The notes: a model not told the origin generated them from the letters alone. A DNA stretch of 64,000 nucleotides from an uncultured Bacilli bacterium (GCA_944358705.1 CALVRR010000003.1:1106-65105); one strand, 5' to 3'. Counted from the first letter of the stretch, positions 30,155-45,862 are shown. Program-made: numbers and translations.

Positions 30155-30670
30155 TTATCGATATAATCCTTTTTCATAGGCTTTTTCATAAGCTTTTTTA
30201 TCTTTTTCTTGGTAATATTTGATTGCTAGAGCTACCATAATTCTATCTGGATAAGTATTTTCAATTTGAGTTATTTCTTCTCTTGTTAATTTATAACCAC
30301 TAATAAAGCGAATTATGGCATTTTCCGGACGTGTTAACATATGATTTATAATTTCTTCTCTAGACATTATATGATCTATTCTAATTTTAGAAGTTGCTGT
30401 TAGGTTATCATAACCATAATAATTAAAGGGATCGCTAAAAGTTAAAATATCTCCTAATGCCGTTACTGTTGCAATACAAATATCTTCTTCTAAACCATTT
30501 ACATAAGCTAAAGTATCTTCTAAATAAGGAGTAAAATGAAAACCAGTTCCGTTTACTCCTTTAGTTAAAATGGTTGTTTCTGGTAGAGAATAGGTTTTTC
30601 CTTCTTTAAATTTCATTCCATATTGATTGGTCATGTCTTTATTTAATGATTTAAAACCACTTCTTGTCAT
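30155..30670 (-). CDS. Hypothetical protein (171 aa)
   Basis: Clean ORF with a GAGGTAG RBS, packed tightly between nadK and uvsE. No catalytic motif recognised. Confidence 0.5.
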   Translation of the reverse strand: MTRSGFKSLNKDMTNQYGMKFKEGKTYSLPETTILTKGVNGTGFHFTPYLEDTLAYVNGLEEDICIATVTALGDILTFSDPFNYYGYDNLTATSKIRIDHIMSREEIINHMLTRPENAIIRFISGYKLTREEITQIENTYPDRIMVALAIKYYQEKDKKAYEKAYEKGLYR

Positions 30671-30672
30671 TT

Positions 30673-31461
30673 CTACCTCACAAATTTATCATTAATCTTT
30701 TTAACAAAATTATATTCTTTCATTCGAAATACGGAAATTTCTCTTTGTTGAAAAACGGATAATTTTTCTACTTTTGGATAGATGATATTATCTCCGTCGA
30801 TACTTAACATTAAATCTTTTGTTCTGCCTGTTGGTCGTATCGTGATTTCTTTATCGCTAGGTAGGATAACCGAATTTAATAAATTACGATAAGAACGGTT
30901 GTTTAATGGAGCTATTGGAGTTACTTGTAGTGTATGAAAGGTATTATATACAATACTTCCTCCATAACTTAGATTGTAGGCAGTAGAACCGAAGGATGTA
31001 GAAACTAGTAAACCATCTCCTACAAATCTTTCTAATAGTTGTCCATCGACTTCGATATCTAGATTGGCGGTGTTTAGATTGCTATCTCTAACTACTACTT
31101 CATTTAATGCTACGTGTCTAGAACTACTATCTTTCGTAGAGATTACAATTTCTTCCACTCCAATTTGTTCTACTTTATAATCGTTTGTTTGTAAGGCGGA
31201 TATAAAAGAGTCAATTTCATCTACATTTACTTCCTGGGCAAATCCTAATGTCCCAGTATTAATTCCTACGTATAGACATTCTTCATTAAAATTTGCATTT
31301 TTTACCATTCGTAGAAAGGCACCATCCCCACCGATGGCAATTGCTAGATCGTAATTATTTTCTACAATAGAAAGGCCTGCTTCTTGTAATTTTTCTGCTA
31401 CTTTTGAAGCAACATACCTTGATTCATCATTATTATTTACAAATAATCTTACATTTTCCAT
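30673..31461 (-). CDS. nadK: NAD kinase
   Basis: GGDGAFLR (GGDG motif), NTGTLGF, and the ST.FGSTAYNLSYGG region. Confidence 0.9.
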   Translation of the reverse strand: MENVRLFVNNNDESRYVASKVAEKLQEAGLSIVENNYDLAIAIGGDGAFLRMVKNANFNEECLYVGINTGTLGFAQEVNVDEIDSFISALQTNDYKVEQIGVEEIVISTKDSSSRHVALNEVVVRDSNLNTANLDIEVDGQLLERFVGDGLLVSTSFGSTAYNLSYGGSIVYNTFHTLQVTPIAPLNNRSYRNLLNSVILPSDKEITIRPTGRTKDLMLSIDGDNIIYPKVEKLSVFQQREISVFRMKEYNFVKKINDKFVR

Positions 31462-31462
31462 G

Positions 31463-32293
31463 TTACTTTCCTTTATATTTAAATAGTACAGAAGGACGAT
31501 GACCTTCTCCTGTTTTCATTTTCTTTGTTTTTTCTACTTTACTAGCAATGATTCTACGAAAGGCAGGATCTAATAGTTTTTTATTTAGTATTACTTCATA
31601 TACTTGTTGTAATTCCCCTAAGGTAAAGTATTCTGGCATCATATTAAAAACAATATCCGTATAGTTTAATTTGTTTCTTAAACGTTCGATTCCAGCTAAA
31701 ATTACTAAAGCGTGATCAAAGGCAATGTCTTTGTTTTTTTCTTCTACAAAGCGATAACGATCGGTTGTTTTTTCACGTAACTCCTTTTTTATAGCTAAGT
31801 GGATGGTTTCTGTTCCATTATCTAAAGTGATATCCACTATATTATTTTTTTCTTCTAATAATACTACGTCAAACCAAGATGCATTTTTATTTATCATATC
31901 TGTTAGTTTGTTTTTATCTACTAAAGCAATATAAGAAGTAGATACTACTCTAGTTCTAGGATCTCTATCAATTGCATCATAGGTATATAATTGTTCTAAG
32001 TATATGTTTGATAGGTTTGTTTCTCTTTTTAGGACATTTTTAGCACATTCCGCTAATGTTTCAGTCTTAGGATTTAAAAATCCACCTGGTAAACACCATT
32101 TTCCTTTGTATGGAAAATCGTCTCTTTTCACAAGCAAAATACTCATCATTTTCTTACTTGTTTTACGATAATTTGTTTGTTCTTGGTCGGATACACTAAT
32201 TAGTAGAATGTCGGCAGTCATAGATAATTGATCAAATGCCTTTGGGTCATAGTCTTTTAGAAATTCTTCTTCAGTTTTATATTCTTTTTTCAT
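31463..32293 (-). CDS. nrtR: Nudix-related transcriptional regulator of NAD metabolism (NrtR family)
   Basis: The N-terminal Nudix fold has a degenerate Nudix box (WCLPGGFLNPKTETLAECAKNVLKRETNL). The C-terminal winged-helix segment reads FTLGELQQVYEVILNKKLLDPAFRRIIASKV, similar to the NrtR pattern F....Lq..ye.i.g..ld..NFRRk. Confidence 0.7.
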   Translation of the reverse strand: MKKEYKTEEEFLKDYDPKAFDQLSMTADILLISVSDQEQTNYRKTSKKMMSILLVKRDDFPYKGKWCLPGGFLNPKTETLAECAKNVLKRETNLSNIYLEQLYTYDAIDRDPRTRVVSTSYIALVDKNKLTDMINKNASWFDVVLLEEKNNIVDITLDNGTETIHLAIKKELREKTTDRYRFVEEKNKDIAFDHALVILAGIERLRNKLNYTDIVFNMMPEYFTLGELQQVYEVILNKKLLDPAFRRIIASKVEKTKKMKTGEGHRPSVLFKYKGK

Positions 32294-32305
32294 AAAATCA
32301 CCTCT

Positions 32306-32324
32306 TATTTATACTTTGATTATA
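32306..32324 (-). promoter_or_regulatory. Weak candidate operator in front of nrtR
   Basis: TATTTA-TACTTTG-ATTATA lies directly next to the RBS. The position matches the stronger sites, but only 9 of 12 half-site positions match. Confidence 0.25.
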
Positions 32325-32394
32325 ACATATATTAAGAAAAAAATAATTATTATTTATTTTTCTTCTATATTTTTTTGTTAAATAAAATTTCAAG

Positions 32395-32871
32395 TTATGA
32401 TTTTATAATTGTTAAAAGCATTTCAATTATTTTATCGATGACGTGGTCTTTATTTAATTTTCTACTTTCTTTGTGTACTTCCATTTTTTCTTGATAATAC
32501 TTATCTTTTTCTTTGTCATAAATACTAATATAGACCACATTATCTTTCCCTACAGGGTTGGCTGGATCTTGTCTATTTAGTTGCCCTGTGATTCCTACTC
32601 CGTAGTCACTATTTGCAAACTTCGTTATGTTTTTACTCATTTCATCGGCAGTTTCTTGACTATATACGGTATATTTGTCAATTACTTCACTAGATACTCC
32701 CATTTTAATTTTATATTCATTTGAGTAAGTAACAGCACTAAATTTTAATATTTCACTCGCTCCTTCACAATTCGTAATGGCGTTCGCTACTCCTCCTCCA
32801 GTACATGACTCCATAGTAGCAATTGTTTTTCTTTGTTCTTGCAAAATATGTATAATCTCTTTAAAATCCAT
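32395..32871 (-). CDS. pncC: NMN amidohydrolase, CinA C-terminal domain type (PncC)
   Basis: ATMESCTGGGVANAIT is the signature of the CinA/PncC deamidase domain. 158 aa, stand-alone. Confidence 0.8.
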   Translation of the reverse strand: MDFKEIIHILQEQRKTIATMESCTGGGVANAITNCEGASEILKFSAVTYSNEYKIKMGVSSEVIDKYTVYSQETADEMSKNITKFANSDYGVGITGQLNRQDPANPVGKDNVVYISIYDKEKDKYYQEKMEVHKESRKLNKDHVIDKIIEMLLTIIKS

Positions 32872-32883
32872 TTTTTATTCTCC

Positions 32884-33453
32884 TTATCTTGTTTTCATAT
32901 ATTTTTTGATATCACATCTATCTATTTGTAATTCTTCATTAATATCAATAAAAGGAACACTTTCTAAATTACTACCTAATTTATTTAAAACAATATCAAT
33001 AGCACAATCTTTTTCTTTATAAAATTCTACCGAAGAAAAGACTTTGTCCTTATCTGGTATTTTAATTCCAATTACAGTATCTAGGCTTATTTCGTCTTTT
33101 ACTTGATATTCATCTTCATAAGGTGAGAAACGCTTACCAGGAAACAGTCTCGATAATTTGCGCCCTAATTCATAATTATAATCTTCTATATACTTCGTAT
33201 TATTTACTGGAATTCCAGCAAAGATAAAAGCATAAGAAGAAGAAATAAACCTTTTATAAGAACTATTCCATACTGATTCTTCTCTTTTTGATAAAGAAAT
33301 ATAATCTAGTCCATTCCAAGTAGGATGATTCAGTTTCTGATATCCTTGTTTTCTTCTAGAAAGAATGGAACCAGCATTTAAAATATCATCTAATTTTTCC
33401 AGTTGCATACGATGATAAAACCAGTCTGGATTAATAACTATTTTCTTAATCAT
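32884..33453 (-). CDS. Hypothetical protein (189 aa), possible H-Y-E-type ADP-ribosyltransferase / Tpt1-DarT-like fold
   Basis: WFYHRMQLEKLDDILNAGSILS resembles the a-Y-H-x-T....L..IL..G.L start of DarT and KptA. DYISLS resembles YVHLS. EDEYQVKDEISLDTVIGIKIP resembles the catalytic-Glu strand. By eye only. Confidence 0.35.
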   Translation of the reverse strand: MIKKIVINPDWFYHRMQLEKLDDILNAGSILSRRKQGYQKLNHPTWNGLDYISLSKREESVWNSSYKRFISSSYAFIFAGIPVNNTKYIEDYNYELGRKLSRLFPGKRFSPYEDEYQVKDEISLDTVIGIKIPDKDKVFSSVEFYKEKDCAIDIVLNKLGSNLESVPFIDINEELQIDRCDIKKYMKTR

Positions 33454-33593
33454 CTTGTTTTCCTAATATCATCTACTTTTATTCTGTACTTTTTCAGATA
33501 AAATTATTTAACATTTCATAAAATATAGATGAACCTTTCTATTAATTTTGATACTTATTCATATGCTTCTTGTTATACTTTAGCATAAACTTA

Positions 33594-34499
33594 TTATTTT
33601 AGCAAAACTTTCTTGCCGAAACCTGCTGTTACTTTATTGTCTGATGTATATACTAATTGTGTTGTATAAGGGCATTCACAATCCTTTATCATTCTAGCAT
33701 AATATTCTACTAATTTATGATGTTTTGTTAAATAAATACCATCTACACATTCACAATACTCTCTACTATAAAAATGATGCCCAGGGAAGAAATTATCATC
33801 CAGATGAGAAAATAAATCGTTAAAATTAATAAATTCTTTTTCTGCATAAGAATTACATTTCATTAATGAGACAAAACCTGTTTTATATACACCTATATCT
33901 CCTACATATGTTAACATGTTTTTAATCTCTTCTAAGGAATTGATTCCACTTTTCATAATCATCGTATTTATATTAATAATTTTTTTATCTGTTAGGCTTT
34001 GCCCTAAATCAATGATATCATTTGTTGTTGCAATCTTTTTAGAATGAAAAATACTTTCGTTTTTTCTGTCATCATAGTGATGTCTAGAGATATGAATGCT
34101 TTCTAATTTATTTACTTTATCATAGTTTTTCAATTCTCTACAATGATATCCATTAGTGGATATCGCCACTTCCATATCTTCATCTATTTTATAAATTAAA
34201 TCTAATACTTGAAATAGTTTCGTAGGATTTGTCATTGGTTCCCCACCGGTAATACTAATACCATGAAGTATATCTTTTTCTTTTAGATAACTGATGACAA
34301 AAGCTAGTTTTTCTAGATCTATCGTTCCAAAATCCTTACTTTGGCTATTAGCGCAAAACTTGCAGTTGGCAAAACATTGGTCTGTTAGTTTTATATATAG
34401 TCTTAAAGTTGGTTTTGTTTTTCTTAGTTTGGTTGGGCTATCTGAACAATAATAATCTTTTACTGGTAATTCTTCATCAAAGATTTTTATTCTTTCCAT
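33594..34499 (-). CDS. Radical SAM enzyme of unknown specificity
   Basis: LTDQCFANCKFCAN (CxxxCxxC), ITGGEP, and C-terminal CEC...(25 aa)...CEC. ATG at 34499 follows the AGAGGTGG RBS; the track ORF starts at a TTG 9 nt upstream. Confidence 0.8.
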   Translation of the reverse strand: MERIKIFDEELPVKDYYCSDSPTKLRKTKPTLRLYIKLTDQCFANCKFCANSQSKDFGTIDLEKLAFVISYLKEKDILHGISITGGEPMTNPTKLFQVLDLIYKIDEDMEVAISTNGYHCRELKNYDKVNKLESIHISRHHYDDRKNESIFHSKKIATTNDIIDLGQSLTDKKIININTMIMKSGINSLEEIKNMLTYVGDIGVYKTGFVSLMKCNSYAEKEFINFNDLFSHLDDNFFPGHHFYSREYCECVDGIYLTKHHKLVEYYARMIKDCECPYTTQLVYTSDNKVTAGFGKKVLLK

Positions 34500-34501
34500 A
34501 T

Positions 34502-34888
34502 TTAACAACCACCTCTATACGTACTCCTTTGTCCGCTACAACCAGTAGACCAATAAGATGGTTCATATGATGATCTGCAAGGATCACTGTGGTAGTGATG
34601 ATAGTGAATGGTTTCTTGTTCTCTTTTTACCTTTTTCTTAGGTTTATCTGAAGTAGTATTTTCTAATAAAGCACTGATATCACAACTTCCTAGTTTTTCT
34701 TTTATCGTTAGTAATTCATCCGTGCAATCAATCACTTGATCTAGGTCACTTAATGTATTATCATCTGCCATTTTTGTTAAATCTAAATAACTTCTAAATT
34801 GCTTTAAGTTCCTTTTTGTTTCTTCTTTTTGAGTACTTTGACTTATGATTTTTCCTACAAAATCAATTAAATCTTGTCTTTCAAACAT
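34502..34888 (-). CDS. 128-aa protein with a His/Tyr/Cys/Gly/Ser-rich C-terminal tail (candidate radical SAM substrate)
   Basis: Helical, charged N-terminal region of about 90 aa, then a KPKKKVKRE linker. The tail is IHYHHYHSDPCRSSYEPSYWSTGCSGQRSTYRGGC and ends on Cys. Its stop codon is 2 nt from the radical SAM ATG. AAGGAG RBS. Confidence 0.6.
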   Translation of the reverse strand: MFERQDLIDFVGKIISQSTQKEETKRNLKQFRSYLDLTKMADDNTLSDLDQVIDCTDELLTIKEKLGSCDISALLENTTSDKPKKKVKREQETIHYHHYHSDPCRSSYEPSYWSTGCSGQRSTYRGGC

Positions 34889-34890
34889 AA

Positions 34891-35898
34891 TTATTCTCCT
34901 TTTAATAATTTATTTACATATTCTTTTGCTTTTTCATAACGTTCTTCGTAATTTCCTGTAATTGTTTCGTATTTAATGTGATTTTCTTTTAATATTTGTT
35001 TTAATATCTTATTATTTTCTTTTCTTACTTCGTCTTTTCCATAAGTTCTTGTGCCATCTTGTACCCAGGCGACATCTGGTTCTAGAAATAGATATAAATC
35101 ATAATTATTTAAATTAGAAATACTAGTGGCGATAGTTTCAAAATCTTTTTCACTTTGTTCTTTAAAGCCTAGTTTGTAATAATATAATGTAATTAATGAA
35201 TCGGTGTCGATAAATAGAATTTTATTAGCATGTTCTAAAGCAATCTTTTCATCTTGTTTATGCTGAAAAAGTATTTCAAAGTAGTGATACTTTTGCATAT
35301 TATCAATTCCACCTGCTTCATCACAGATATATCTTCCTGCTTCTTCTACATGCGTAGTGTTATATGCTTTTGCTAGATTTCTAACTAGTGTTGTTTTACC
35401 ACAACTTTCTGTACCAATGATGCATACTTTTTTTGTATAATATTTCCTTACACATGCTGGAAGATAATCAAAATATTTATATGGATTTTGTCTAATTTCT
35501 GTTGAAGATATATTAATTTCTTCTCTATCAAAATAGATAACTTTACTTTCATTATATAGATTTTCCCATAGGTTTTGATTTTTATAATCACTTCCTGCAA
35601 ATACTACGTCTATTTTTCTTCCTATATATTTTTTTACATCTTGTACTCCTTGTTCCCAGTCATATGTTTCTTTATTTAAGTTCTTTGAATAGATTGGAAA
35701 TACTTCTACATTTTCCATATCTTGAGTAATATTTTTTAGCCACGTGATTCTGGTTTTTTCGTCTATTTCTTTTGGATCATCACTGATACTTATTGGAATA
35801 TATAGTTTTTTGCATTGATTCTTTGCCATGATGATATCGTTTACATGACCTAAGTGTAGAGGATTAAATGTTCCTCCATACATTCCTATTTCATACAT
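34891..35898 (-). CDS. nadR: Bifunctional NMN adenylyltransferase / ribosylnicotinamide kinase (NadR-type, no HTH)
   Basis: GGTFNPLHLGH (nucleotidyltransferase HxGH) and GTESCGKTTL (P-loop of the RNK domain). Confidence 0.8.
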   Translation of the reverse strand: MYEIGMYGGTFNPLHLGHVNDIIMAKNQCKKLYIPISISDDPKEIDEKTRITWLKNITQDMENVEVFPIYSKNLNKETYDWEQGVQDVKKYIGRKIDVVFAGSDYKNQNLWENLYNESKVIYFDREEINISSTEIRQNPYKYFDYLPACVRKYYTKKVCIIGTESCGKTTLVRNLAKAYNTTHVEEAGRYICDEAGGIDNMQKYHYFEILFQHKQDEKIALEHANKILFIDTDSLITLYYYKLGFKEQSEKDFETIATSISNLNNYDLYLFLEPDVAWVQDGTRTYGKDEVRKENNKILKQILKENHIKYETITGNYEERYEKAKEYVNKLLKGE

Positions 35899-36575
35899 TT
35901 TACATCCTCCTTTGCAATCTTTGACCAGTTATAATAACCATAAAAAGCATTTACTAAATATACTGCCCACATGGTTACCATAATGTAGTCTTTTACGTGC
36001 CACCACATAATTACTGTAATAATATCTATTACTATCCATAGTAGCCATTGTTCTCTATATCTTAATACCATCAATAGATTAGCAACAACAGAGATTACTG
36101 TAGAGGCACTGTCTAGTAAAGGATTTGTACCACCTAAGTGGTTTAATAAGTATTGGTATAGAAAAATACCTATTCCTGTAATTATTAATAAGATAATAGA
36201 ATGCTTTATATTTAACTTCTTTCCTTGTACTTCATCATCTTCTTCCTTGGTATTTTTACTCCATAAATAGTAACCAATGAATTGTAGTGGTAGATAATAG
36301 ATAGCATTTAACATCACTTCTCCATAGTATTTGTGAATCCAAGCAACTATTATATAACCTAGGATGTTGAAGAATCCCCAGAAATACTGACTTCTTTTTC
36401 CCTTTGCACAAAGTACTACACAAAATATTCCAGATATCGCAGCAATCGCATCAATTACTATATAAATTAAACTATCTTCTTTATTTATGATGGCAAAATA
36501 AGTAGTGAAGAGTGTGACTGCTAGAATCATACTCCATTCAAAGACTGAAAACTTTTTAATAGCTTTTAATAGCAT
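35886..36575 (-). CDS. pnuC: Nicotinamide riboside transporter PnuC
   Basis: Seven-TM protein with W-rich motifs (WLLWIVIDIITVIMWW, YGYYNW) typical of PnuC. Start taken at MLLKAIKKF after GGAAAGGAAG. Confidence 0.8.
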   Translation of the reverse strand: MLLKAIKKFSVFEWSMILAVTLFTTYFAIINKEDSLIYIVIDAIAAISGIFCVVLCAKGKRSQYFWGFFNILGYIIVAWIHKYYGEVMLNAIYYLPLQFIGYYLWSKNTKEEDDEVQGKKLNIKHSIILLIITGIGIFLYQYLLNHLGGTNPLLDSASTVISVVANLLMVLRYREQWLLWIVIDIITVIMWWHVKDYIMVTMWAVYLVNAFYGYYNWSKIAKEDVKCMK

Positions 36576-37185
36576 AGAAACACTTCCTTTCCACCTTTTC
36601 TTCATATAAGTGATTTTCTTTTATATATTGATATACTTTTTTATCTAGATATTTTTTGATATTACCTAGTTTTTTCTTTTTTATTTCTTCTCTAATATAA
36701 GTAGAAGATAATGTTTCTTCTTTGATAGAAGTTACGATTATATTTTTTTGATAATTTTTATATTTTTCTAATAATGGTTCTAATTCGTCGGTTGTTCTTT
36801 TAATAACTAAAATTTTATAGTTTTTTAAGATATAGTCTCCTCTTTTCCATTGATCTATATAACTTAAATTATCTGTTCCACAAATAAAGTAAATGTCATC
36901 TTCTGGATATTTCCTTTTGAAATGATCTAGGGTTTCATAGGTATAGACTGGCCTATCTTGTAACTCATACTTACTTAGGGATAAATCTTTTTCATGTTCT
37001 ATCATAAGTGTTAACATTGTATACCTAGTAGTATTTGATTCTAGGTTATTTTTATATTCATATTTTGTTCCTGTTGGTACAAAGATAACTTTATCGACAT
37101 AACCTTGTTTAATTAATTCTTTGGCTATTTCTTTATGCATTTTGTGAGGGGGATTAAAGCTTCCTCCAAAGATTCCTATTTTCAT
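36556..37185 (-). CDS. nadD: Nicotinate-nucleotide adenylyltransferase
   Basis: IGIFGGSFNPPHKMH (GxFxPxHxxH) and ISSTYIR (ISST motif). Overlaps the prs stop by 4 nt. Confidence 0.85.
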   Translation of the reverse strand: MKIGIFGGSFNPPHKMHKEIAKELIKQGYVDKVIFVPTGTKYEYKNNLESNTTRYTMLTLMIEHEKDLSLSKYELQDRPVYTYETLDHFKRKYPEDDIYFICGTDNLSYIDQWKRGDYILKNYKILVIKRTTDELEPLLEKYKNYQKNIIVTSIKEETLSSTYIREEIKKKKLGNIKKYLDKKVYQYIKENHLYEEKVERKCFYAIKSY

Positions 37186-38255
37186 AATCTTTTCTCCTTT
37201 CGTAAGTCTAAAATCTTTTCTTTCCCATTAAATAAAGGTTTTAATGATTCTTTTTCATGTAATGCGTTTATGATATCTGCGATATTTTCAGAACAGTCTA
37301 CGGTATGAAACCATTCTTTTTCTCTGTATTCTTCTGGGATATATGAAAGATTGGTTGTATATAATTTATCAAAATAATGATTTTTATAAGCGTTATTGAA
37401 TTCTTCTATTCCTTCTGTAAATAATGAGAAGGTAGCGATAAAGTATACTTTGTTGGCACCATCTTTTTTTAATCTTTCTCCTACTTCTAACATAGAAGTA
37501 CCACTAGCTATCATATCATCTACGATTAGAATATCTTTTCCTTCTACACTTGGTCCCATATAGGTGTGTTCAATGATTGGATTTTTCCCATTTACTACTT
37601 TCGTTAGATCTCGTCTTTTGTAAAATACTCCTACATTGGTATCTAACATTTCAGCAAAATATCTAGCACGTTCTGTTGCTCCCATGTCTGGACTGATTAC
37701 TAAAATATCTTTTAAATTCTCAGTTTGTAATAAGTCTTCTAAGATTGTGTTTGTAGGGTAAAAATTTTCAAATGGTAAGTTAGGAATGGCATTGGAAATG
37801 GTTGGATCATGGGCATCAAAAGTAACGATATGATCTACTCCTAATCTTTCTAATTCTTGTAAAGCTATGGCACAATCTGCGGATTCTCTTCCTTTTCGTT
37901 TGTGTTGTCTTGATTGATATAGCAATGGCATAATTACTGTTACTTTTTCAGAATATCCAGAGATTGCAGAAATTGTTCTTTTAATATCTTGAAAATGTTC
38001 ATCTGGTGCCATATGATGAGTAAATCCATGCATATTATAAGTAATTCCGTAATTACCAACATCGGCTAGTAAATATATATCTTTTTCTCTAATACTATCT
38101 TCTATTTTTACTTTTCCTTCTCCGTTAGAAAATCTGCTGGCAGTAATATTTACTATATAATCGGTATTTTCTTTTTTCTTGTTTTTTAATTTTATATTTA
38201 CTTTTTCTCCTAGCTCTTTTATATTGTCCAATACTATTAATTTTAAATTATTCAT
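37182..38255 (-). CDS. prs: Ribose-phosphate pyrophosphokinase paralog (long form)
   Basis: RFSNGE, DAHD, ILIVDDMIASGTS (PRPP-binding loop). 357 aa with an insertion (NYGITYNMHGFTHHMAPDEHF). Confidence 0.75.
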   Translation of the reverse strand: MNNLKLIVLDNIKELGEKVNIKLKNKKKENTDYIVNITASRFSNGEGKVKIEDSIREKDIYLLADVGNYGITYNMHGFTHHMAPDEHFQDIKRTISAISGYSEKVTVIMPLLYQSRQHKRKGRESADCAIALQELERLGVDHIVTFDAHDPTISNAIPNLPFENFYPTNTILEDLLQTENLKDILVISPDMGATERARYFAEMLDTNVGVFYKRRDLTKVVNGKNPIIEHTYMGPSVEGKDILIVDDMIASGTSMLEVGERLKKDGANKVYFIATFSLFTEGIEEFNNAYKNHYFDKLYTTNLSYIPEEYREKEWFHTVDCSENIADIINALHEKESLKPLFNGKEKILDLRKEKRL

Positions 38256-38267
38256 ACTATCACCTCT

Positions 38268-38286
38268 TATTAATATTTTGTTAATA
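38268..38286 (-). promoter_or_regulatory. Operator-like palindrome (candidate NrtR box) next to the prs RBS
   Basis: TATTAA-TATTTTG-TTAATA, immediately upstream of the GAGGTGA RBS. Confidence 0.5.
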
Positions 38287-38306
38287 TCTTTGTTTAAAAA
38301 AATATG

Positions 38307-38711
38307 TTATCTTCTAAATTCCTTTACTTGTTTTTTGGCTTCTATTTTTATTCCATTACAGTAGGATTTCTCTTTGCATCTTTCTGATGGTCCCCAACCT
38401 GTCCAGGTGGTATCGATTCCATTATCTATCCATAGTTTCTTTACTTGATAACCTTGTTCTTCTAATAAATCTTTAAAAATTCCTTGGTATTCCTCATAAG
38501 GTATATTTCTTTTTATTGGTATTTCGGTTCCTAAAAGAGAAGCTGTTCCAGAAAGTTCTATGGTTGTTACTGCTGCGGTGTGTTCCCCTGTATAGTAACT
38601 TACTTGCTCTTTTGATGTCTTCATTTTTACAGTTCCATTGATACCTTCTTTTCTTTTGTAATAATCCGTTAAAATATTTTCTACTTGTGTTTTATTTAAT
38701 GTCATTTCCAT
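38307..38711 (-). CDS. Hypothetical protein (134 aa), first gene of the prs-nadD-pnuC-nadR transcription unit
   Basis: Clean ORF with a GAGAGGAG RBS. No motif recognised. Preceded by a promoter and two operator-like boxes. Confidence 0.55.
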   Translation of the reverse strand: MEMTLNKTQVENILTDYYKRKEGINGTVKMKTSKEQVSYYTGEHTAAVTTIELSGTASLLGTEIPIKRNIPYEEYQGIFKDLLEEQGYQVKKLWIDNGIDTTWTGWGPSERCKEKSYCNGIKIEAKKQVKEFRR

Positions 38712-38727
38712 AGTTACTCTCCTCTCT

Positions 38728-38746
38728 TATTACTTTTTTGTTAATA
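38728..38746 (-). promoter_or_regulatory. Operator-like palindrome next to the RBS of ORF 38307..38711
   Basis: TATTAC-TTTTTTG-TTAATA. Confidence 0.45.
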
Positions 38747-38782
38747 ACATATTCTGTAAGTAATACAGATTTTCCCATCTGT

Positions 38783-38818
38783 TATTAACATTATATTAAT
38801 ATCTATTTCTTTTGTCAA
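38783..38818 (-). promoter_or_regulatory. Sigma-A promoter with an overlapping operator-like palindrome
   Basis: Minus strand TTGACA (38818-38813), 17 nt, TATAAT (38795-38790). TATTAA-CATTATA-TTAATA (38783-38801) covers the -10. The roughly 44-bp cassette is almost identical to 45362-45405. Confidence 0.6.
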
Positions 38819-38914
38819 CCTTTTTTTCGTTTTTTTCAAACTTTTTCTTTAGAAAAAAATTATAAATTGTTAAACTATATGTTATAATATCTTTCCAAAA
38901 GGAGCTGTTTTGAT

Positions 38915-39421
38915 ATGAGTGAGTTTTATGATTATTTTAGTAAACAAAGAATAAAACCCTCTAGTATTCATAGAAGTGATTATCATCCTAGTATTGCAAA
39001 TTCTAGTATTGGATTATTATCTAGAAGTTTTGATACCGATATTAGTTCTTCTTTTCTTTCTTTTGATGTTGTTTTGAATGATACTTTAGAACGAATTGGT
39101 AATATTGGTTTTCACGATTCTAGCTTTGAGGAGCTGTTTTATGGTGGAAATGTAGATTATGCTATTTATGATAGATTTCAAAAACAAGGATATGGGACAC
39201 AAAGTTTAGCACTTTTAAAAGAATTGTTGCGAGATAATTCTTACGCTATAAAAAATGGTTTACTTATATCTACTCTTCCAGAAAATATTTACTCTCAGAG
39301 AGTTGCTATTAAAAATGGTGGAGTTTTGGTTTATGAGGGACAAGTACCAGAAGATAATTTGCTTTATCAACTAGATCATGTTAAAGAAGTGAAAGTTTAT
39401 CAGATTCAGATGAAAAAGTAA
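38915..39421 (+). CDS. GNAT-family N-acetyltransferase
   Basis: YAIYDRFQKQGYGTQSLALL has a Q/RxxGxG/A-like acetyl-CoA loop. 168 aa, AAGGAG RBS, divergent from the NAD operon. Confidence 0.65.
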   Translation: MSEFYDYFSKQRIKPSSIHRSDYHPSIANSSIGLLSRSFDTDISSSFLSFDVVLNDTLERIGNIGFHDSSFEELFYGGNVDYAIYDRFQKQGYGTQSLALLKELLRDNSYAIKNGLLISTLPENIYSQRVAIKNGGVLVYEGQVPEDNLLYQLDHVKEVKVYQIQMKK

Positions 39422-39425
39422 CTCG

Positions 39426-40478
39426 TTATTTTTGAGTTACTTTTTCTTTTGTGATATATTTTTTGAATCTTTGTTTTGCCCTATCCATATCAAAGTTACC
39501 ATCAAAATAAGGATTCCATGAATAATAATCGAAGTTTTCTTGTAATTTTTTTCTATCGTGATTTGGATACAATTTTCCATCTACGGTATAGTCGATAATG
39601 ATGTTGGTAGCAGTAATTACTTCTTTTTCTCTTAATTCATGTAATAGTTCTACTGCTTGATTGGTTGCAGCTACATTTCTATTCATTGCTTTTAATAATT
39701 CTTCATCAAAGCTTTGTACCGGACAGTGAACAATATCTAATAAATGGTTATTTGCTAGTTCTAATAATTCTTCTCTACATTGAATTAAATTCTGTGGTTC
39801 TATATTACGTATAGATATTTCTTTGTTACATTCTTTTGCAATCTTACACCAAGCTTTTACTTGAGATACCGTAGGACTATCAGAAGTTAGTACAACGTGT
39901 TCATGATTTAAAAATTCTTCTATCTGCTCTTCTGGTATCCTTTCATAATTATCTCCTCTTGTATGACGAATGGTACAATACTTACATTTTCCATGGCATC
40001 CTGCTCCTATTTTTAATGGATAATAATTTCGAAATAAGTTTCCGTCTTTTAAATTATCTTTGGATTCTTCAAAATCTGGGACCCAGAATGGTTTTTCGTA
40101 ATGAACTAAACTTCTATCCTCCAACTCCTGTCCTACTATTCTAACTACATCTAATCTTTTGATATAATCTGGTAGAGGAATATCCATTCTTTGTGCAAGG
40201 CAACCACCCATGAAAATATCTTTTCCTGTTTTTTCATGCAATTTCTTCGCTACTTCTAAGTCGTTTAGGACTGCTAAATCGGTTACTTGACAACCTAATA
40301 CTACAACACTATCCGCACTATTTACATCGTTTGTAAATCTATCTTTATATTTGTTGGCAAAAGATAACATATCACTCCATACTGACATACAAGCTGCACT
40401 TGTTGCATAAATTTTTCCTTTTAAGTCTTCTTCTTGGTAAAGAATACCTTCACCAAATTTATTATTTACTTTTTTCAT
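39426..40478 (-). CDS. Radical SAM protein with a methylthiotransferase-like N-terminal domain, no TRAM domain
   Basis: The N-terminal Cys triad context (SAACMS, VLGCQV, GGCLAQ) resembles the MiaB/RimO UPF0004 domain. GAGCHGKCKYCTIRHTRG is the CxxxCxxC site. 350 aa, ending without a TRAM-like tail. Confidence 0.65.
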   Translation of the reverse strand: MKKVNNKFGEGILYQEEDLKGKIYATSAACMSVWSDMLSFANKYKDRFTNDVNSADSVVVLGCQVTDLAVLNDLEVAKKLHEKTGKDIFMGGCLAQRMDIPLPDYIKRLDVVRIVGQELEDRSLVHYEKPFWVPDFEESKDNLKDGNLFRNYYPLKIGAGCHGKCKYCTIRHTRGDNYERIPEEQIEEFLNHEHVVLTSDSPTVSQVKAWCKIAKECNKEISIRNIEPQNLIQCREELLELANNHLLDIVHCPVQSFDEELLKAMNRNVAATNQAVELLHELREKEVITATNIIIDYTVDGKLYPNHDRKKLQENFDYYSWNPYFDGNFDMDRAKQRFKKYITKEKVTQK

Positions 40479-40492
40479 ATTACTCTCCTTCT

Positions 40493-40511
40493 TATTAATA
40501 TTATGTTAATA
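40493..40511 (-). promoter_or_regulatory. Operator-like palindrome next to the RBS of the MTTase-like radical SAM gene
   Basis: TATTAA-TATTATG-TTAATA, directly upstream of AAGGAGAG. Confidence 0.5.
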
Positions 40512-40566
40512 TCTTTCTTTGAAATTTTAGAGGATTTCTCCTCTATACTTTTTTCTTCCCCGTTAT

Positions 40567-42501
40567 TTATTCATCTTTTATTTCTTCTAATTCTTTTAAC
40601 CAAGCTTCATAACTAGCATCACTTGGCATACGTAAATCTCCTCTTGGAGATAGGCTAATACTTCCTACTTTAACACCATCTGGAATACAATTTCTCTTAA
40701 ATTGTTGCGTAAAGAAACGTCTGATAAAAACTTTTAACCATTTTTTTATTTCTTCCTTGGAAAAACTATTTTTAAAAGTATGTTTTGCTAACATATATAT
40801 TTTCTTTGGTGTTGCGCCATATCTTAAGAAATGGTATAGGAAAAAGTCATGTAAAACATATGGTCCGATACTTGATTCGGTTTTTTGTAAGATGTTTCCT
40901 GCCTCGTCTGGTGGTAATAATTCTGGAGAAATCGGAGTATCTAATATGTCTTTTAACACTTCTTTTTTCTTACCGTCTGTAGTATCTGCTACCCAGGCAA
41001 CCAGATAACGAACTAAAGTTTTTGGAATTGAAGTGTTTACTGCATACATACTCATGTGATCTCCATTATAAGTACACCAACCTAAAGCAAGTTCAGATAA
41101 GTCTCCTGTACCAATTACTAATCCACCTTCCATATTCGCAACATCCATTAATATTTGTGTACGTTCTCTTGCTTGAATGTTTTCGTAAGTGATACTTCTG
41201 TCATTTTCTGGAAGACCGATATCTTTCATATGAAGAAGAGATGCTTCTTTGATGCTTATCTCTTTTAAAGTAGCTCCGTACTCTTTTACTAAATCTACGG
41301 CATTTTGGTAGGTTCTACCCGTGGTACCAAAACCAGGCATCGTTATCCCTATGATGTCTTTTGTATTTCTTTTTAGTTTTTCAAATGCCTTTACGATTAC
41401 TAAATAAGCTAGTGTAGAGTCTAGACCTCCACTCATACCGATGATACATTTAGGATTACCAAGTTGTATTAATCTTCTAGCAAGAGCACTGGATTGGATT
41501 TCAATGATTTCTTCACATCTTCTACTTCTTTCTAATTCGTTTGATGGAACAAATGGATACTCTTTATATTCTCTTTGCAATTCTTTGATTGTATCAAAAA
41601 CCTCTATTTTTATTGTGTTATATTCCAATTTTTGTGCCATGTTCATATAACTTCTGTTTTTTCTGCGATCATTTGCTAGTTTTAAAACATCGATATCGGC
41701 AGTAATAATATTACTTTCTATCTCGAAACGTTTGTTTTCTGCTAATTTTGATCCATTTTCATAAATCATACTGGCACCACCGAATAATACATCTGAAGTA
41801 GATTCCATAACGCCACTTGATGCGTAAATATAGGCAGAAATTGTTCTAGCAGATTGACTAGATACTAAACTCTTGCGATATTCTTGTTTTCCAATCAGTT
41901 CATTACTACTTGATAAATTAAAGATAATGGTTGCTCCTGCTAAGGTGTGATTGTTACTTGGAGGGGTTACAGTCCATAAATCTTCACAAATATCAATTCC
42001 AAAAGTAATATCTGTTAGGGTTTTATCTTGAAATAATAAATTGGTAGTAATTGGAACGTTCTGACCTAAAATTTCTATTTCGTTATTTTTTAAGTCTTTG
42101 CTAGATGAAAACCATCTAGCTTCATAAAACTCTTGATAATTAGGTATATAAGTCTTTGGAACTATTCCTAAAATTTTACCTTTTTGAATTACTACAGCAC
42201 AGTTAAATAACTGATTATCCTGTTTTATTGGCATTCCTAAAATAGAGATAATGTCTAATTCTTTTGTTTCTTCCAATACTTTTTGTAAAGCTTTTTTGCT
42301 GTCTTCTAATAATTGATCTTGTAAAAATAAATCTCCACATGTATATCCAGTTAAAGAAAGTTCTGGTGTTGTTACGATTGAGGTGTTTAATTTTACGGCT
42401 TCTTTTATTTGTTTAATTATTTCTTCTGCATTTTTTATAGGGTTTGCTAAAGATAATTTATTAACCATAGCTCCTACTCTGACATATCCATATTCTTTCA
42501 T
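40567..42501 (-). CDS. nadE: Glutamine-dependent NAD+ synthetase (CN-hydrolase plus synthetase domains)
   Basis: N-terminal nitrilase-like domain (TPELSLTGY, CEDLW) and the SGGLDST PP-loop. Start taken at MKEYGYVRV after AAAGGAG. Confidence 0.9.
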   Translation of the reverse strand: MKEYGYVRVGAMVNKLSLANPIKNAEEIIKQIKEAVKLNTSIVTTPELSLTGYTCGDLFLQDQLLEDSKKALQKVLEETKELDIISILGMPIKQDNQLFNCAVVIQKGKILGIVPKTYIPNYQEFYEARWFSSSKDLKNNEIEILGQNVPITTNLLFQDKTLTDITFGIDICEDLWTVTPPSNNHTLAGATIIFNLSSSNELIGKQEYRKSLVSSQSARTISAYIYASSGVMESTSDVLFGGASMIYENGSKLAENKRFEIESNIITADIDVLKLANDRRKNRSYMNMAQKLEYNTIKIEVFDTIKELQREYKEYPFVPSNELERSRRCEEIIEIQSSALARRLIQLGNPKCIIGMSGGLDSTLAYLVIVKAFEKLKRNTKDIIGITMPGFGTTGRTYQNAVDLVKEYGATLKEISIKEASLLHMKDIGLPENDRSITYENIQARERTQILMDVANMEGGLVIGTGDLSELALGWCTYNGDHMSMYAVNTSIPKTLVRYLVAWVADTTDGKKKEVLKDILDTPISPELLPPDEAGNILQKTESSIGPYVLHDFFLYHFLRYGATPKKIYMLAKHTFKNSFSKEEIKKWLKVFIRRFFTQQFKRNCIPDGVKVGSISLSPRGDLRMPSDASYEAWLKELEEIKDE

Positions 42502-42527
42502 ACTAATTCTCCTTTTTTTATAGTGTA

Positions 42528-43160
42528 TCAAATTTTTTCTGTTTTTACTAAACCTTTTGCTTTTTCAATGGTAAATTGTGACTGAAGATCTGTAATATAT
42601 CCATTGTTTACTAATTCTATAGCTTCTTCAAAACTACATTCAAAATAACGAATAATTTCATCTTTATCCAAGTTTTGTTCTTTTGTTTTTTCACATTCTA
42701 AGGCAACCATACTGTAGTTATAGGCAGCACTGCATCCTTGATCTTGGTAAAAACTAGCTAATAGTTGCATTTCCTCTGGTACATATCCAGTTTCTTCTTC
42801 TAGTTCTCTTTTTCCTGCAGTTAATGGATCTTCTCCCGTTTCTAAATATCCAGCCGGTAACTCTACACATACCGTTTCTTTCGTGAATACTCTTGGTTGT
42901 ACTACTAATAAAGTATTTCCTTCTTTGGTGATTGGTAAAATAATTGCAGCACTACCATCTTTTCCTCTTTTTACAATTTTTTCTCTTGGAATTATTCTTC
43001 CGTTTTGTAGTTGGCAATTGTAACTTTCTACATTAATAAATCCTTTTCTTTGGATAGGTTCTGTTCCTTGGTATATAAATTTTTCTTTTTGTTTTTCTAA
43101 TTTTATCGTTTGTAATTCTTTTATGTAATCTCTTAATTCTTCAAGTTTTTCCTTGCGCAT
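42528..43160 (-). CDS. Nudix hydrolase, ADP-ribose pyrophosphatase-like
   Basis: ELPAGYLETGEDPLTAGKRELEEETGY matches the Nudix box GX5EX7REUXEEXGU. Confidence 0.75.
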   Translation of the reverse strand: MRKEKLEELRDYIKELQTIKLEKQKEKFIYQGTEPIQRKGFINVESYNCQLQNGRIIPREKIVKRGKDGSAAIILPITKEGNTLLVVQPRVFTKETVCVELPAGYLETGEDPLTAGKRELEEETGYVPEEMQLLASFYQDQGCSAAYNYSMVALECEKTKEQNLDKDEIIRYFECSFEEAIELVNNGYITDLQSQFTIEKAKGLVKTEKI

Positions 43161-44647
43161 TTTATACGTTCCTTTCCTTTTTCTTCTGGTTTATTTTGAG
43201 TATTTTTCATTCTTTCTTCAATTTCATTTTGATGAAACTCTATTAATTCTTGTTTTAACATTCTTAATTTATCAGATAAATCTACATAATATTCATGTGG
43301 TTTTTCAATTCTTGTTACTTCTGGATATAGTGTTTCAAACTCTCTCTCGCAATATTCTTGTTTTTCTTGTAAAGTAGGGTCTTGATATACCAACTCTCCA
43401 TTTATGAAAATTGGTACTAGTAGGCTTCTTACATTGTAATTTGTTAGATTTGTTTTCTTCCATGTTTCTACTGGATGAACTAGAGTATAATGGTCTTTAT
43501 TAATTTGTTCTTCCGCTAAAGTAATAACATCTCCTAAGGCATAACCAGTTTCTTTATCGTAGAAACGATGTACTTTTTTATATCCAGGGTTGATGGTTTT
43601 TATACTATCGTTACTTACTTTGATACGTGGCACTGCTTTTTTGTTTTCTTCTACGGCTACTAATTTATATACTCCGCCAACTCTTTCTTTTGGAGCGGCA
43701 ATATTGTCTCCAGCACCAATGGAATTGATCTGTGCTCCTTGTGTAATTAAATCTCTAATCGTATATTCATCTAAGCCGTTGGATAAACAAATTCCGGTAT
43801 CTTTATAACCTGCGGCATCTAACATTTTTCTTGCTTCTTGAGATAAGTAAGCTAAATCTCCGCTATCGATACGAATACCTTTAAATGGATAGCCATTTGG
43901 TGTTAAATATTCGTTTGCAACTCTAATTGCATTTGGAACACCACTATGTAAAGTGTCATAGGTATCTACTAGGAATACACAGTTATCTGGATTACTTTTT
44001 GCATATTTTAAAAATGCATCGTATTCATCTTCACTTTCAGTTACTAATGAGTGGGCCATTGTTCCCATGACCGGAATATCGTATTGCATACCAGCATAAG
44101 TGTTGGATGTTCCTACGCATCCACCGATATATGCACATTTACTTGCTTCTATTGCGGAATCAATTCCTCTCGCACGTCGTGCTCCAAATTCCATGACTGG
44201 AATTCCTTTTGCTTCGTTCGTGATTCTCTTGGCAGCTGTCGTTACTAATGATCCGTGATTGAAATTAGCAAGTAGTGCGGTTTCTAAGATTTGTGCTGTT
44301 ACGGCATCGGCTTTTACTGTTAATACTGGTTCGTTTGGAAATACTACGGTTCCATCTGGTACGGCATAAATATCTCCTTCAAATTTTAATGTGCTTAAAT
44401 AGTTTAAAAATTCTTCGTTGAACTTTCCTAATTTTCTTAAGTAGTTTAATTCCTCTTCTCCAAAGTGCAAGTTTTTAATATAATTAATTGTTTCGTCTAA
44501 TCCACCACTAATTGTGTACCCACCATTAAATGGGTTGCTACGAAAGAAAATATCAAAGTATACTTGTTCTTCTTTCTTCCCTTCGTTAAAATAAGTTTGA
44601 GCCATTGTTAACTCATAAAAATCTGTCATTAATGTTTTATTTTTCAT
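43133..44647 (-). CDS. pncB: Nicotinate phosphoribosyltransferase
   Basis: LMTDFYELTMAQ, EFGARRA, GTSN and GTMAHS are classic Gram-positive PncB motifs. Confidence 0.9.
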   Translation of the reverse strand: MKNKTLMTDFYELTMAQTYFNEGKKEEQVYFDIFFRSNPFNGGYTISGGLDETINYIKNLHFGEEELNYLRKLGKFNEEFLNYLSTLKFEGDIYAVPDGTVVFPNEPVLTVKADAVTAQILETALLANFNHGSLVTTAAKRITNEAKGIPVMEFGARRARGIDSAIEASKCAYIGGCVGTSNTYAGMQYDIPVMGTMAHSLVTESEDEYDAFLKYAKSNPDNCVFLVDTYDTLHSGVPNAIRVANEYLTPNGYPFKGIRIDSGDLAYLSQEARKMLDAAGYKDTGICLSNGLDEYTIRDLITQGAQINSIGAGDNIAAPKERVGGVYKLVAVEENKKAVPRIKVSNDSIKTINPGYKKVHRFYDKETGYALGDVITLAEEQINKDHYTLVHPVETWKKTNLTNYNVRSLLVPIFINGELVYQDPTLQEKQEYCEREFETLYPEVTRIEKPHEYYVDLSDKLRMLKQELIEFHQNEIEERMKNTQNKPEEKGKERIKCARKNLKN

Positions 44648-44661
44648 AAATATTCTCCTCT

Positions 44662-44680
44662 TCTTAATTATTTGTTAATA
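44662..44680 (-). promoter_or_regulatory. Operator-like palindrome next to the pncB RBS
   Basis: TCTTAA-TTATTTG-TTAATA (one half-site mismatch), directly upstream of GAGGAG. Confidence 0.4.
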
Positions 44681-44696
44681 TCATATTTTAAAAAAA

Positions 44697-45293
44697 TTAA
44701 TTCTTCTTACTTACTAATTTGATTCCTTGCTGCTTCATTAATAATTTTGCAGCTCTTACATATTCGCCTCTTGCTTCTTCGTTGTAGGTGGCGATTGCAT
44801 CTTCATATACTTTAATTTCTACTTCACGATTCCATTGGTCATAAAAATTAGCAAGTCCCATCGCTCCATTTAAATCACAAATATCGGTACAGCAACCCAT
44901 TAATCTGACCTCTTCCACATTTTCTGCTTCGGTTGCTATTTCTCTAAATTTCGGTGCCTCCATAAAACTTGTTGAATTCTTTTCTATTGAAATCGTATCA
45001 TCCATTTCTTCGAATAGCTTTAACTCATCTACTAGTTCTGCTTCCCTTGTACCTTTTACACAATGTTTTGTATCCTCATAACGTTTAAATTCTACTGCGT
45101 TTTTATCATGAGCATCTTTTACGATGATAACGATGAAACCATCATCATGTGCTTCTTTGATAAGTTCTTTTTGTCTTGGAATAATTCTTTTGATGTTTTT
45201 ATCATGTAAAACTCCTTCCTCCAAAAAGCCATTCACCATGTCAACAAGAATTAGCATTCCTTTGTAAACTTTAAGATTTTTCACTTTGTTCAT
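44697..45293 (-). CDS. pncA: Isochorismatase-family hydrolase, probable nicotinamidase
   Basis: LILVDMVNGF (catalytic Asp region), a mid-protein Lys, and GCCTDICD (catalytic Cys). The genomic context is next to pncB. Confidence 0.7.
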   Translation of the reverse strand: MNKVKNLKVYKGMLILVDMVNGFLEEGVLHDKNIKRIIPRQKELIKEAHDDGFIVIIVKDAHDKNAVEFKRYEDTKHCVKGTREAELVDELKLFEEMDDTISIEKNSTSFMEAPKFREIATEAENVEEVRLMGCCTDICDLNGAMGLANFYDQWNREVEIKVYEDAIATYNEEARGEYVRAAKLLMKQQGIKLVSKKN

Positions 45294-45307
45294 AATATCC
45301 CTCCTCT

Positions 45308-45326
45308 TATTTACATTTTATTAATA
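45308..45326 (-). promoter_or_regulatory. Operator-like palindrome next to the pncA RBS
   Basis: TATTTA-CATTTTA-TTAATA. Confidence 0.4.
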
Positions 45327-45365
45327 ACAAAGTTTAAAATTTTACAAGTACTTTTTTTCACTTGT

Positions 45366-45401
45366 TATTAACATTATATTAATAACTATTTCGTTTGTCA
45401 A
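45366..45401 (-). promoter_or_regulatory. Sigma-A promoter with an overlapping operator-like palindrome (pncA-pncB-nudix-nadE unit)
   Basis: TTGACA (45401-45396), 17 nt, TATAAT (45378-45373). TATTAA-CATTATA-TTAATA (45366-45384) covers the -10. Confidence 0.6.
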
Positions 45402-45531
45402 CCTCTTTTTAACATTTTTTTAAAAAGAATTTTATTTTTTAAAGATAGTGCTATTGATATGTGATTTTTTCGAAGAAGAAAACGTGCTATAATAGTTGTA
45501 TATGAAAATGAAGGAGGATGTATGGAAAGAA

Positions 45532-45850
45532 CATCTAATAAATTGGTCAGAGATAATATACCAAATATTATTAAAGAAAATGGTGAAGTTCTTATTACTA
45601 GGATTTTAACGGATGAGGAGTATAAAAAGAATTAGAGAAAAAGTTAGATGAAGAGTTACAAGAAGTATTAGAAGCAACTGGGATGGATCGTATTGAAGAG
45701 TTAGCTGATATGCTAGAAGTCATAAAAGCTTTGGCGAAATTAGAAAATACTAGTTTCTCTGATGTTGTGAAAGTTGCAGAAGAAAAATGTGACAAGCGTG
45801 GTGGCTTCGAAGATAAAATATTTTTAGAAAAAGTAGTTGATAAAAAATAA
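45532..45850 (+). pseudogene. MazG-like all-alpha NTP pyrophosphohydrolase gene interrupted by a frameshift in an A-run
   Basis: Frame 1 reads MERTSNKLVRDNIPNIIKENGEVLITRILTDEEYKKN* (stop at 45633-45635). Frame 2 continues ELEKKLDEELQEVLEATGMDRIEELADMLEVIKALAKLE...KRGGFEDKIFLEKVVDKK. One extra A in the A5 run (45624-45628) would restore a single ORF of about 105 aa. AAGGAGG RBS. Confidence 0.7.
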
Positions 45851-45862
45851 TTTGTTTCAAAC

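Follow-up and report, generated by a model that had tools for sequence, protein, structure and literature searches.

A recurring palindrome in the NAD gene cluster of an uncultured gut Bacilli bacterium and its probable assignment to the regulator NrtR

The 64,000-nt stretch of DNA analyzed here (hereafter the window) comes from an uncultured Bacilli bacterium and carries a cluster of genes for the salvage and recycling of nicotinamide adenine dinucleotide (NAD), in which a palindromic box is repeated seven times. These boxes are real sites, specific to the cluster within the genome and positionally conserved over a large clade. Judged from sequence, they are probably operators of NrtR, a regulator encoded in the same cluster, and we put the probability of this reading at roughly 0.8. 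The assignment, already favored in a preliminary description of the window, is supported by the Nudix plus NrtR_WHD architecture of the protein, by the co-occurrence of box and regulator across genomes, by conservation of the box in 65 of 80 related loci, and by the finding of no NiaR, no NadR with a helix-turn-helix (HTH) domain, and no riboswitch.

Seven palindromic boxes stand out in the genome

All seven copies of the pattern TATTAA-N7-TTAATA (with zero or one mismatch) that the preliminary description had listed were recovered at the same positions. The refined element is a longer, 23-bp palindrome, GWTATTAAYAWWWTRTTAATAWS, which goes beyond the 6-N7-6 pattern in sharing a G at −2, Y-A and T-R within the N7 segment, and A-A-S at the 3′ terminus (Table 1, where box sequences are given in the sense orientation). 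Over 65 unique sites the palindrome measured 21 to 23 bp, and its arm positions were 75 to 100% complementary. Five copies abut a ribosome-binding site (RBS), as had been described, ending 10 to 17 nt before the ATG and entering the Shine-Dalgarno sequence, and the other two hold the TATAAT hexamers of two TTGACA-17-TATAAT promoters with 12/12 matches, the only ones that a promoter scan of 17.5 kb found in the region. The box on each of these promoters (P1 and P2) is designated O1 and the box in the leader behind it O2, and the remaining three, before pncB, the radical S-adenosylmethionine (SAM) gene rSAM350, and prs, are internal to operons. At RBS-type sites the overlap with the Shine-Dalgarno sequence makes the right arm slightly more degenerate and places a G, not a C, at position 23. 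Upstream of such boxes there is usually a T-run and then an A-run (TTTTTTTAAAA...), as at 38289-38300 and 44683-44695 and also in the related loci L031 to L048; no hairpin was detected before these runs upstream of the RBS-type boxes.

The loose TATTAA-N7-TTAATA pattern is common, with 94 matches in the whole genome (1.70 Mb, 29% GC), and in the window alone its count was not significant (9 matches versus 5.3 expected, with 8 of 100 shuffles reaching 9). Its clustering was a different matter, as seven loose matches fell within 7.1 kb versus 0.37 expected (Poisson P of ~1e-7). A genome-wide scan with a position weight matrix (PWM) had been suggested in the preliminary description, and we carried it out with a symmetrised 23-bp PWM in which each site was scored with a matrix built from the other six (leave-one-out). 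Six of the seven sites scored above all other positions in the 1.7-Mb genome; for the pncB box, which is the weakest, one other position scored as high. The PWM was trained on the sites of this genome, and the circularity is mitigated by the leave-one-out scoring and by the use of independent genomes. Further regulon members elsewhere in the genome were considered and rejected, the next-best matches (≤18.7) being judged chance occurrences; one lies inside a coding region (C19:12395) and another before the gene for an unrelated membrane protein (C2:15713).

The box is conserved together with NrtR

Conservation was followed in a close-relative set of 60 genomes, with NrtR orthologs counted at ≥65% identity; most of the genomes used were metagenome-assembled genomes (MAGs). 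Orthologs were present in 17 of the 60, 16 of them in the same genus (79 to 95% identity) and the remaining one in a different genus within the family (65%), and two genomes of another family (G041 and G056) carried NrtR copies of ~50% identity. The strict motif TATTAAYAWWWTRTTAATA was found in every one of the 17 genomes with an ortholog, and in only two genomes without a detected one, namely G042, with one isolated match, and G006, an 89%-complete MAG in which two sites lie beside pncB at a distance of 7.5 kb from each other and from which nrtR was probably lost in assembly. A reversed-pattern control gave 0 to 1 match per genome. No motif copy was seen in nine PncB-bearing genomes without this NrtR, and the motif was also absent from genomes holding only an NrtR paralog (described below). 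The motif tracks this NrtR, and neither pncB alone nor the second paralog.

A GTDB genome scan extended the comparison to 80 loci with a 64 to 95% identical NrtR, all from uncultured gut MAGs labelled Bacilli or Mollicutes, Candidatus Onthousia among them. Sites scoring ≥18 occurred in 65 of these loci, which amounts to 157 sites in 1.3 Mb versus 0 in the reversed sequence. The nearest downstream genes were pncA (59 sites), prs (22), pncB (11), rSAM350 (3), and nrtR (3), and 10 sites lay before members of the family of unk134, a 134-aa protein of the cluster, with distant homologs in addition. Distances from site to ATG were bimodal, ~10 to 17 nt for the RBS-flush type and ~62 to 75 nt for the promoter type. 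In relatives, promoter-type sites always lay at a TTGACA-N17-TATAAT promoter whose −10 hexamer was covered by the box, and the centers of O1 and O2 were 52 to 57 bp apart. The boxes remain invariant while the −35/−10 spacers, the leaders, and even PncA (down to 25 to 30% identity) diverge, which reads as classical phylogenetic footprinting.

The operon-internal boxes are less constant. In about one-third of the relatives a box occupies the pncA-pncB spacer, and elsewhere no spacer separates pncA from pncB, so these boxes form an optional layer. For prs, many relatives have an O1 and O2 of its own, and here only an O2-type box is present, with unk134 intervening; internal boxes may be remnants of formerly independent promoter regions. 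In one relative (G019), NrtR is 95% identical and PncB only ~50% identical, and G006, in which no NrtR ortholog was detected, shares this divergent PncB. The operators are in place in both, which suggests that the control design stayed the same while salvage genes were replaced.

NrtR is the only evident regulator in the cluster

The 276-aa NrtR matched Pfam PF00293 (NUDIX) at residues 52 to 144 and PF21906 (NrtR_WHD, a winged-helix domain) at residues 215 to 272, and it matched NCBIfam NF050029 at 1.5e-42, below the equivalog cut-off. Its relatives in the PDB are AraR (5bs6), SoNrtR (3gz5/3gz6), and 2fml. The Nudix box is degenerate, with NVLKRE in place of REUXEE. By Pfam and NCBIfam, NrtR is the sole cluster protein with a recognizable DNA-binding domain, and the uncharacterized cluster proteins gave no match to a DNA-binding family in these databases.

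Other regulators of NAD genes were examined as candidates. NiaR (YrxA) of Firmicutes and NadR of Enterobacteria resemble the present system in that palindromic operators repress NAD salvage and biosynthesis genes. The 3H domain of NiaR (PF02829), however, had no match in the genome, while the control genomes of Bacillus subtilis and Thermotoga maritima were positive. NadR was rejected as the box-binding repressor, as the 335-aa protein encoded here consists of NMNAT and kinase parts with the NMNAT beginning at residue 6 and no HTH (Pfam), and the enterobacterial box TGTTTA-N6-TAAACA differs from the one described here. NAD+ riboswitches (nadA and pnuC motifs) were likewise rejected, with no match to the Rfam covariance models in the region: a scan of 30000-46500 returned no family above threshold and no NAD-related family even at E values up to 1.

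A second NrtR paralog, ~33% identical to the cluster NrtR, is encoded on another contig (C11:38011-38718). Its promoter bears a palindrome between −35 and −10, GTGTAC-N4-GTACGC (GTGTA-N5-TACAC in two relatives, L023 and L024), which is of the canonical GT-N7-AC NrtR type, and the paralog likely runs a separate regulon. The paralog gene has a thymidine kinase gene and a gene for an AAA-type ATPase as neighbors, and upstream of it lies a sirtuin-like gene.

Points against NrtR and alternative readings

Several observations weigh against NrtR as the protein that binds the boxes. The box is without the GT-N7-AC (TG-N7-CA) core and reads AAC-N5-GTT, and its sequence is distinct from those of the boxes in Streptococcus and Mycobacterium (PMC2330246, PMC6800001). 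At the ~50%-identity NrtR orthologs of G041 and G056 no clear copy was found, so that the box is specific to the clade of NrtR proteins with ≥64% identity. The nrtR gene itself is without a good operator in this genus. Finally, motif, nrtR, and NAD genes are inherited as one cluster, and because all of them travel together, co-occurrence cannot fully separate NrtR from another cluster factor.

This coinheritance, the noncanonical core, the presence of an NrtR paralog in the genome, and several cluster open reading frames (ORFs) without family assignment would also fit binding by another protein, either the paralog or an uncharacterized cluster protein such as unk134. We consider this improbable. 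The paralog is widespread in motif-free genomes (G020-G022, G026, G033, and G036), and the palindrome at its own promoter is a different one; unk134 was found by BLAST in 9 of the 80 loci (plus some distant homologs) versus 65 with the motif, and its predicted structure has no HTH and no match in the PDB.

Somewhat less probable still, in our estimation, is that the RBS-adjacent sites act in the mRNA, as a small A-U hairpin that affects translation or stability or binds an RNA-binding protein. Five sites are transcribed and run precisely up to the Shine-Dalgarno sequence, the distance to the ATG is held to 10 to 17 nt in relatives, and the palindrome could be folded as RNA too. Nevertheless, the two best copies lie on a −10 hexamer, for the most part ahead of the point where transcription is predicted to start, the stem would comprise 6 to 8 A-U pairs and be very weak, and no Rfam family matched. 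At the variable arm positions 9 and 15, C-A mismatches (16 of 65) reached the frequency expected under independence and Watson-Crick pairs made up only 40%, which indicates that pairing is not selected; on this ground the RNA-hairpin reading was rejected and operators in DNA are preferred. That the repeats are nonregulatory, being chance A+T-rich matches or a duplicated promoter/RBS cassette, is hardly credible, since against the commonness of the loose pattern, its unremarkable count in the window, and the near identity of the two promoter cassettes in this genome stand a refined motif unique to the cluster and orthologous positions kept in 65 of 80 loci despite diverging flanks, with 0 control matches.

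Comparison with characterized NrtR systems

The NrtR boxes in the literature are palindromes of 21 bp that differ in sequence from lineage to lineage, with GT-N7-AC present in 12 of 18 groups and not in six (PMC2330246). The predicted NrtR regulon described here resembles those of Rodionov et al. (2008, PMC2330246) in having a Nudix plus winged-helix regulator, an nrtR gene within the regulated cluster, and a palindrome of ~21 bp with the same symmetry and the same placement at genes of the pncA, pncB, prs, nadD, and nadE type. It differs in the box, TTATTAAYA-N3-TRTTAATAA, which reads ...TTAAC-A-N3-T-GTTAA... with C/G at positions 9 and 15, and not GT/AC at 6-7 and 15-16; because the GT-N7-AC core is missing, the box groups with the "dissimilar" sets of that study. 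It also differs in that the regulon is unusually large and contiguous, with two operons and seven boxes, that O1 (on the −10 hexamer) and O2 (RBS-flush) form a fixed pair 52 to 57 bp apart, that nrtR has no strong box in the genus, and that the host belongs to an uncultured gut Bacilli lineage.

NrtR sites commonly overlap a promoter or fall between promoter and start codon (PMC2330246). The preliminary description had called placement next to an RBS unusual for a repressor, which holds for the operon-internal boxes only, as sites between promoter and start are normal for NrtR. Even an operon-internal NrtR site has a predicted counterpart in Clostridium acetobutylicum, where sites are marked ahead of nrtR and of pncB in nrtR-pncA-pncB-nadD-nadE (PMC2330246).

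NrtR of Streptococcus suis and Streptococcus sobrinus (PMC6800001, PMC12735969) is alike in coming from Firmicutes, in its degenerate and probably inactive Nudix box, and in its A+T-rich palindrome, and the degenerate Nudix box found here agrees with that of "remnant" NrtRs, the S. suis protein among them (PMC6800001). Streptococcus NrtR controls the salvage genes pnuC-nadR and pncB, and ADP-ribose frees it from DNA (PMC6800001, PMC12735969). Its box is a different sequence, however, ATA-N-TTTA-N3-TAAAA-N2-ATA (PMC6800001), and occurs at one or two sites per genome versus seven here. The Mycobacterium box is GTTTTCGA-N7-TCGAAAAC (PMC6800001). A literature search by box sequence, with the RegPrecise logos outside the comparison, returned no paper with the present box, only unrelated GUIDE-seq tags.

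Proposed mechanism and significance

From the family literature (PMC2330246, PMC6800001, PMC12735969) we infer NrtR binding, the identity of the effector, and the action at internal sites. An NrtR dimer would bind the 21- to 23-bp box. At P1 and P2, where the box spans the −10 hexamer, bound NrtR would exclude RNA polymerase, and O2, 55 to 58 bp downstream beside the RBS, would reinforce repression. The three boxes in the short spacers before pncB, the MiaB-like radical SAM gene, and prs would probably serve either as a roadblock to read-through or through cooperative or local-concentration effects; the roadblock taken by itself is a tentative proposal that we hold at somewhat less than even odds. 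By analogy with characterized NrtRs, a breakdown product of NAD, most likely ADP-ribose, would release NrtR through its catalytically degenerate Nudix domain, and release would turn on salvage of niacin and nicotinamide, supply of phosphoribosyl pyrophosphate, uptake of nicotinamide mononucleotide and nicotinamide riboside (NR), and NAD synthesis.

The box represents, as far as its sequence tells, a new version of a known NrtR-type switch, in an unstudied lineage and with a somewhat elaborate multi-operator layout. For a large clade of uncultured Bacilli from the guts of animals and humans, which appear to be auxotrophic for niacin or NR because NadA is absent, it supplies a predicted NrtR regulon with its operator consensus, and it broadens the diversity of NrtR boxes by one without the usual core. 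As a specific marker, with no control matches in 1.3 Mb, the box flags the unk134 family, the MiaB-like radical SAM protein, and others as NAD-linked. A stronger version, which we think rather unlikely, holds that the RBS-flush internal boxes are a deliberate roadblock design giving graded, gene-by-gene control in NAD operons and that the boxes mark uncharacterized genes as linked to NAD or ADP-ribose. If it were true, unk134 (no known fold), the MiaB-like radical SAM protein without a TRAM domain, and a 128-aa protein with its radical SAM partner would be marked as new NAD- or ADP-ribose-linked functions. Roadblock repression by a Nudix-type regulator could be studied cleanly here, given the fixed pairing of two operators at each promoter and the boxes internal to operons. 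How NAD regulation is generally understood does not change.

Gene content and operon structure

The gene list given in the preliminary description (NadK, NrtR, PncC, NadR, PnuC, NadD, Prs, NadE, a Nudix protein, PncB, and PncA) was confirmed with Pfam and NCBIfam, which further identified NadE as glutamine dependent and the Nudix protein as NudE/AdpP-like, and found in the cluster a pair of radical SAM proteins as well as three ORFs to which no family could be assigned. The statement that de novo nadABC genes are lacking stood as regards NadA, which is absent from the genome; the search covered NadA, and NadB and NadC were not searched. From this, the de novo NAD route appears to be lacking in this bacterium.

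The cluster had also been described as one codirectional block. Its genes do all lie on the minus strand, but they form two operons and not a single transcription unit, since the block is interrupted by a GNAT gene of convergent orientation together with a bidirectional terminator (39412-39446). In operon 1 the order is P1/O1, hairpin, O2, pncA, box, pncB-nudix-nadE, box, rSAM350, terminator, and in operon 2 it is P2/O1, hairpin, O2, unk134, box, prs-nadD-pnuC-nadR-unk128-rSAM304-unk189-pncC-nrtR-nadK.

Table 1. Coordinates of boxes, genes, promoters, and other elements (positions in the window; a dot marks a feature assigned to both strands)
Feature	Position	Strand	Remarks
Predicted operator O1 of promoter P1	45364-45386	-	GTTATTAATATAATGTTAATAAC; center TATAAT is the −10 hexamer; arrangement kept upstream of pncA in relatives
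Predicted operator O2, pncA leader	45306-45328	-	GTTATTAATAAAATGTAAATAAG; 58 bp from O1; last bases enter the Shine-Dalgarno sequence
Operon-internal box, flush with the pncB RBS	44660-44682	-	GATATTAACAAATAATTAAGAAG; weakest of the seven, leave-one-out score 16.6
Operon-internal box, flush with the RBS of the MiaB-like radical SAM gene (rSAM350)	40491-40513	-	GATATTAACATAATATTAATAAG; sites before the ortholog in relatives
Predicted operator O1 of promoter P2	38781-38803	-	GATATTAATATAATGTTAATAAC; center is the −10 hexamer
Predicted operator O2, leader of unk134	38726-38748	-	GTTATTAACAAAAAAGTAATAAG; 55 bp from O1
Operon-internal box, flush with the prs RBS	38266-38288	-	GATATTAACAAAATATTAATAAG; prs is the second commonest target in relatives
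nrtR, proposed repressor, 276 aa	31463-32293	-	Nudix domain with degenerate Nudix box plus NrtR winged-helix domain
"Weak copy" before nrtR	32304-32326	-	GTTATAATCAAAGTATAAATAAG; PWM score 9.2
Promoter P1, TTGACA-17-TATAAT, 12/12	45373-45401	-	Drives pncA-pncB-nudix-nadE-rSAM350
Promoter P2, TTGACA-17-TATAAT, 12/12	38790-38818	-	Drives unk134-prs-nadD-pnuC-nadR and genes beyond
A+T-rich element just 5′ of the P1 −35	45405-45427	-	CTTTTTAAAAAAATGTTAAAAAG; 41 bp from O1; PWM score 12.1
Hairpin, predicted 5′ end of P1 transcript	45344-45365	-	ACAAGTG...TACTTGT
Hairpin, predicted 5′ end of P2 transcript	38765-38782	-	ACAGAT...ATCTGT
Bidirectional terminator hairpin	39412-39446	.	Between the radical SAM gene (-) and the GNAT gene (+); ends operon 1
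pncA	44697-45293	-	
pncB	43133-44647	-	
Nudix gene	42528-43160	-	
nadE	40567-42531	-	
rSAM350, MiaB/RimO-like radical SAM without TRAM domain, own box	39426-40478	-	
unk134 (134-aa unknown)	38307-38711	-	
Rest of operon 2: prs, nadD, pnuC, nadR, unk128, rSAM304, unk189, pncC, nrtR, nadK	30673-38255	-	
128-aa protein coupled to the second radical SAM enzyme	33594-34888	-	Uncharacterized, inside a predicted NrtR-controlled operon
189-aa unknown	32884-33453	-	Uncharacterized, inside a predicted NrtR-controlled operon

The MiaB-like radical SAM gene was present in 11 of the 80 related loci. The unk134 family consists of proteins of 118 to 139 aa whose gene is repeatedly the first behind an O1/O2 promoter; homologs were found in L051, L054, L068, L072, L078, L095, L099, L112, L125, and other loci, and no match was obtained in Pfam or NCBIfam. 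The AlphaFold model of unk134 is confident (predicted local distance difference test score of 88) and shows two units of a helix plus a long β-hairpin, with no HTH, and a fold search with it found no PDB match at E ≤ 0.001.

The promoter of nrtR and other elements

The preliminary description had also proposed a weaker copy of the box before nrtR. As an operator it did not hold up, as 32 genome positions scored at least as high as its 9.2. Across relatives the region is kept in a nonconsensus form, TGTTATAATCAAnnTATAAATAAGAGGTG, consisting of an extended −10 promoter and a short leader. The element is probably a promoter of the extended −10 type, TGTTATAAT. Any activity as an operator would be very weak, and the sequence looks like a decayed operator. 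More distant relatives (L082, L083, and L085) have a full O1-type box at nrtR. In this genus nrtR is probably expressed from a weakly regulated or unregulated promoter of its own plus read-through from P2.

Directly after O1, a hairpin of 5 to 7 bp folded with z < −1.5 in 33 of 42 unique related leaders (L049 to L128). Its stems vary with pairing kept (ACAAGT/ACTTGT, ACAGAT/ATCTGT, ACAGAA/TTCTGT, and AAGAG/CTCTT), and it is probably a 5′-terminal stabilizing stem-loop. The A+T-rich element 5′ of P1 has similar counterparts in many relatives (...AATGTTAAAAAG-N3-4-TTGACA, with spacing in the class of 40 to 42 bp) and is either a degenerate, weak third operator or an UP element.

The two promoter cassettes of this genome (38779-38822 and 45362-45405) are nearly identical, the −35/−10 spacer included, and the spacer varies between genomes, a pattern that points to either a recent duplication or concerted evolution. 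A G+C-containing hairpin (40528-40545, TAGAGGAGAAATCCTCTA) lies past the nadE stop codon, ahead of the rSAM350 box. It has no U-tail in the sense direction and may be a processing or stability element.

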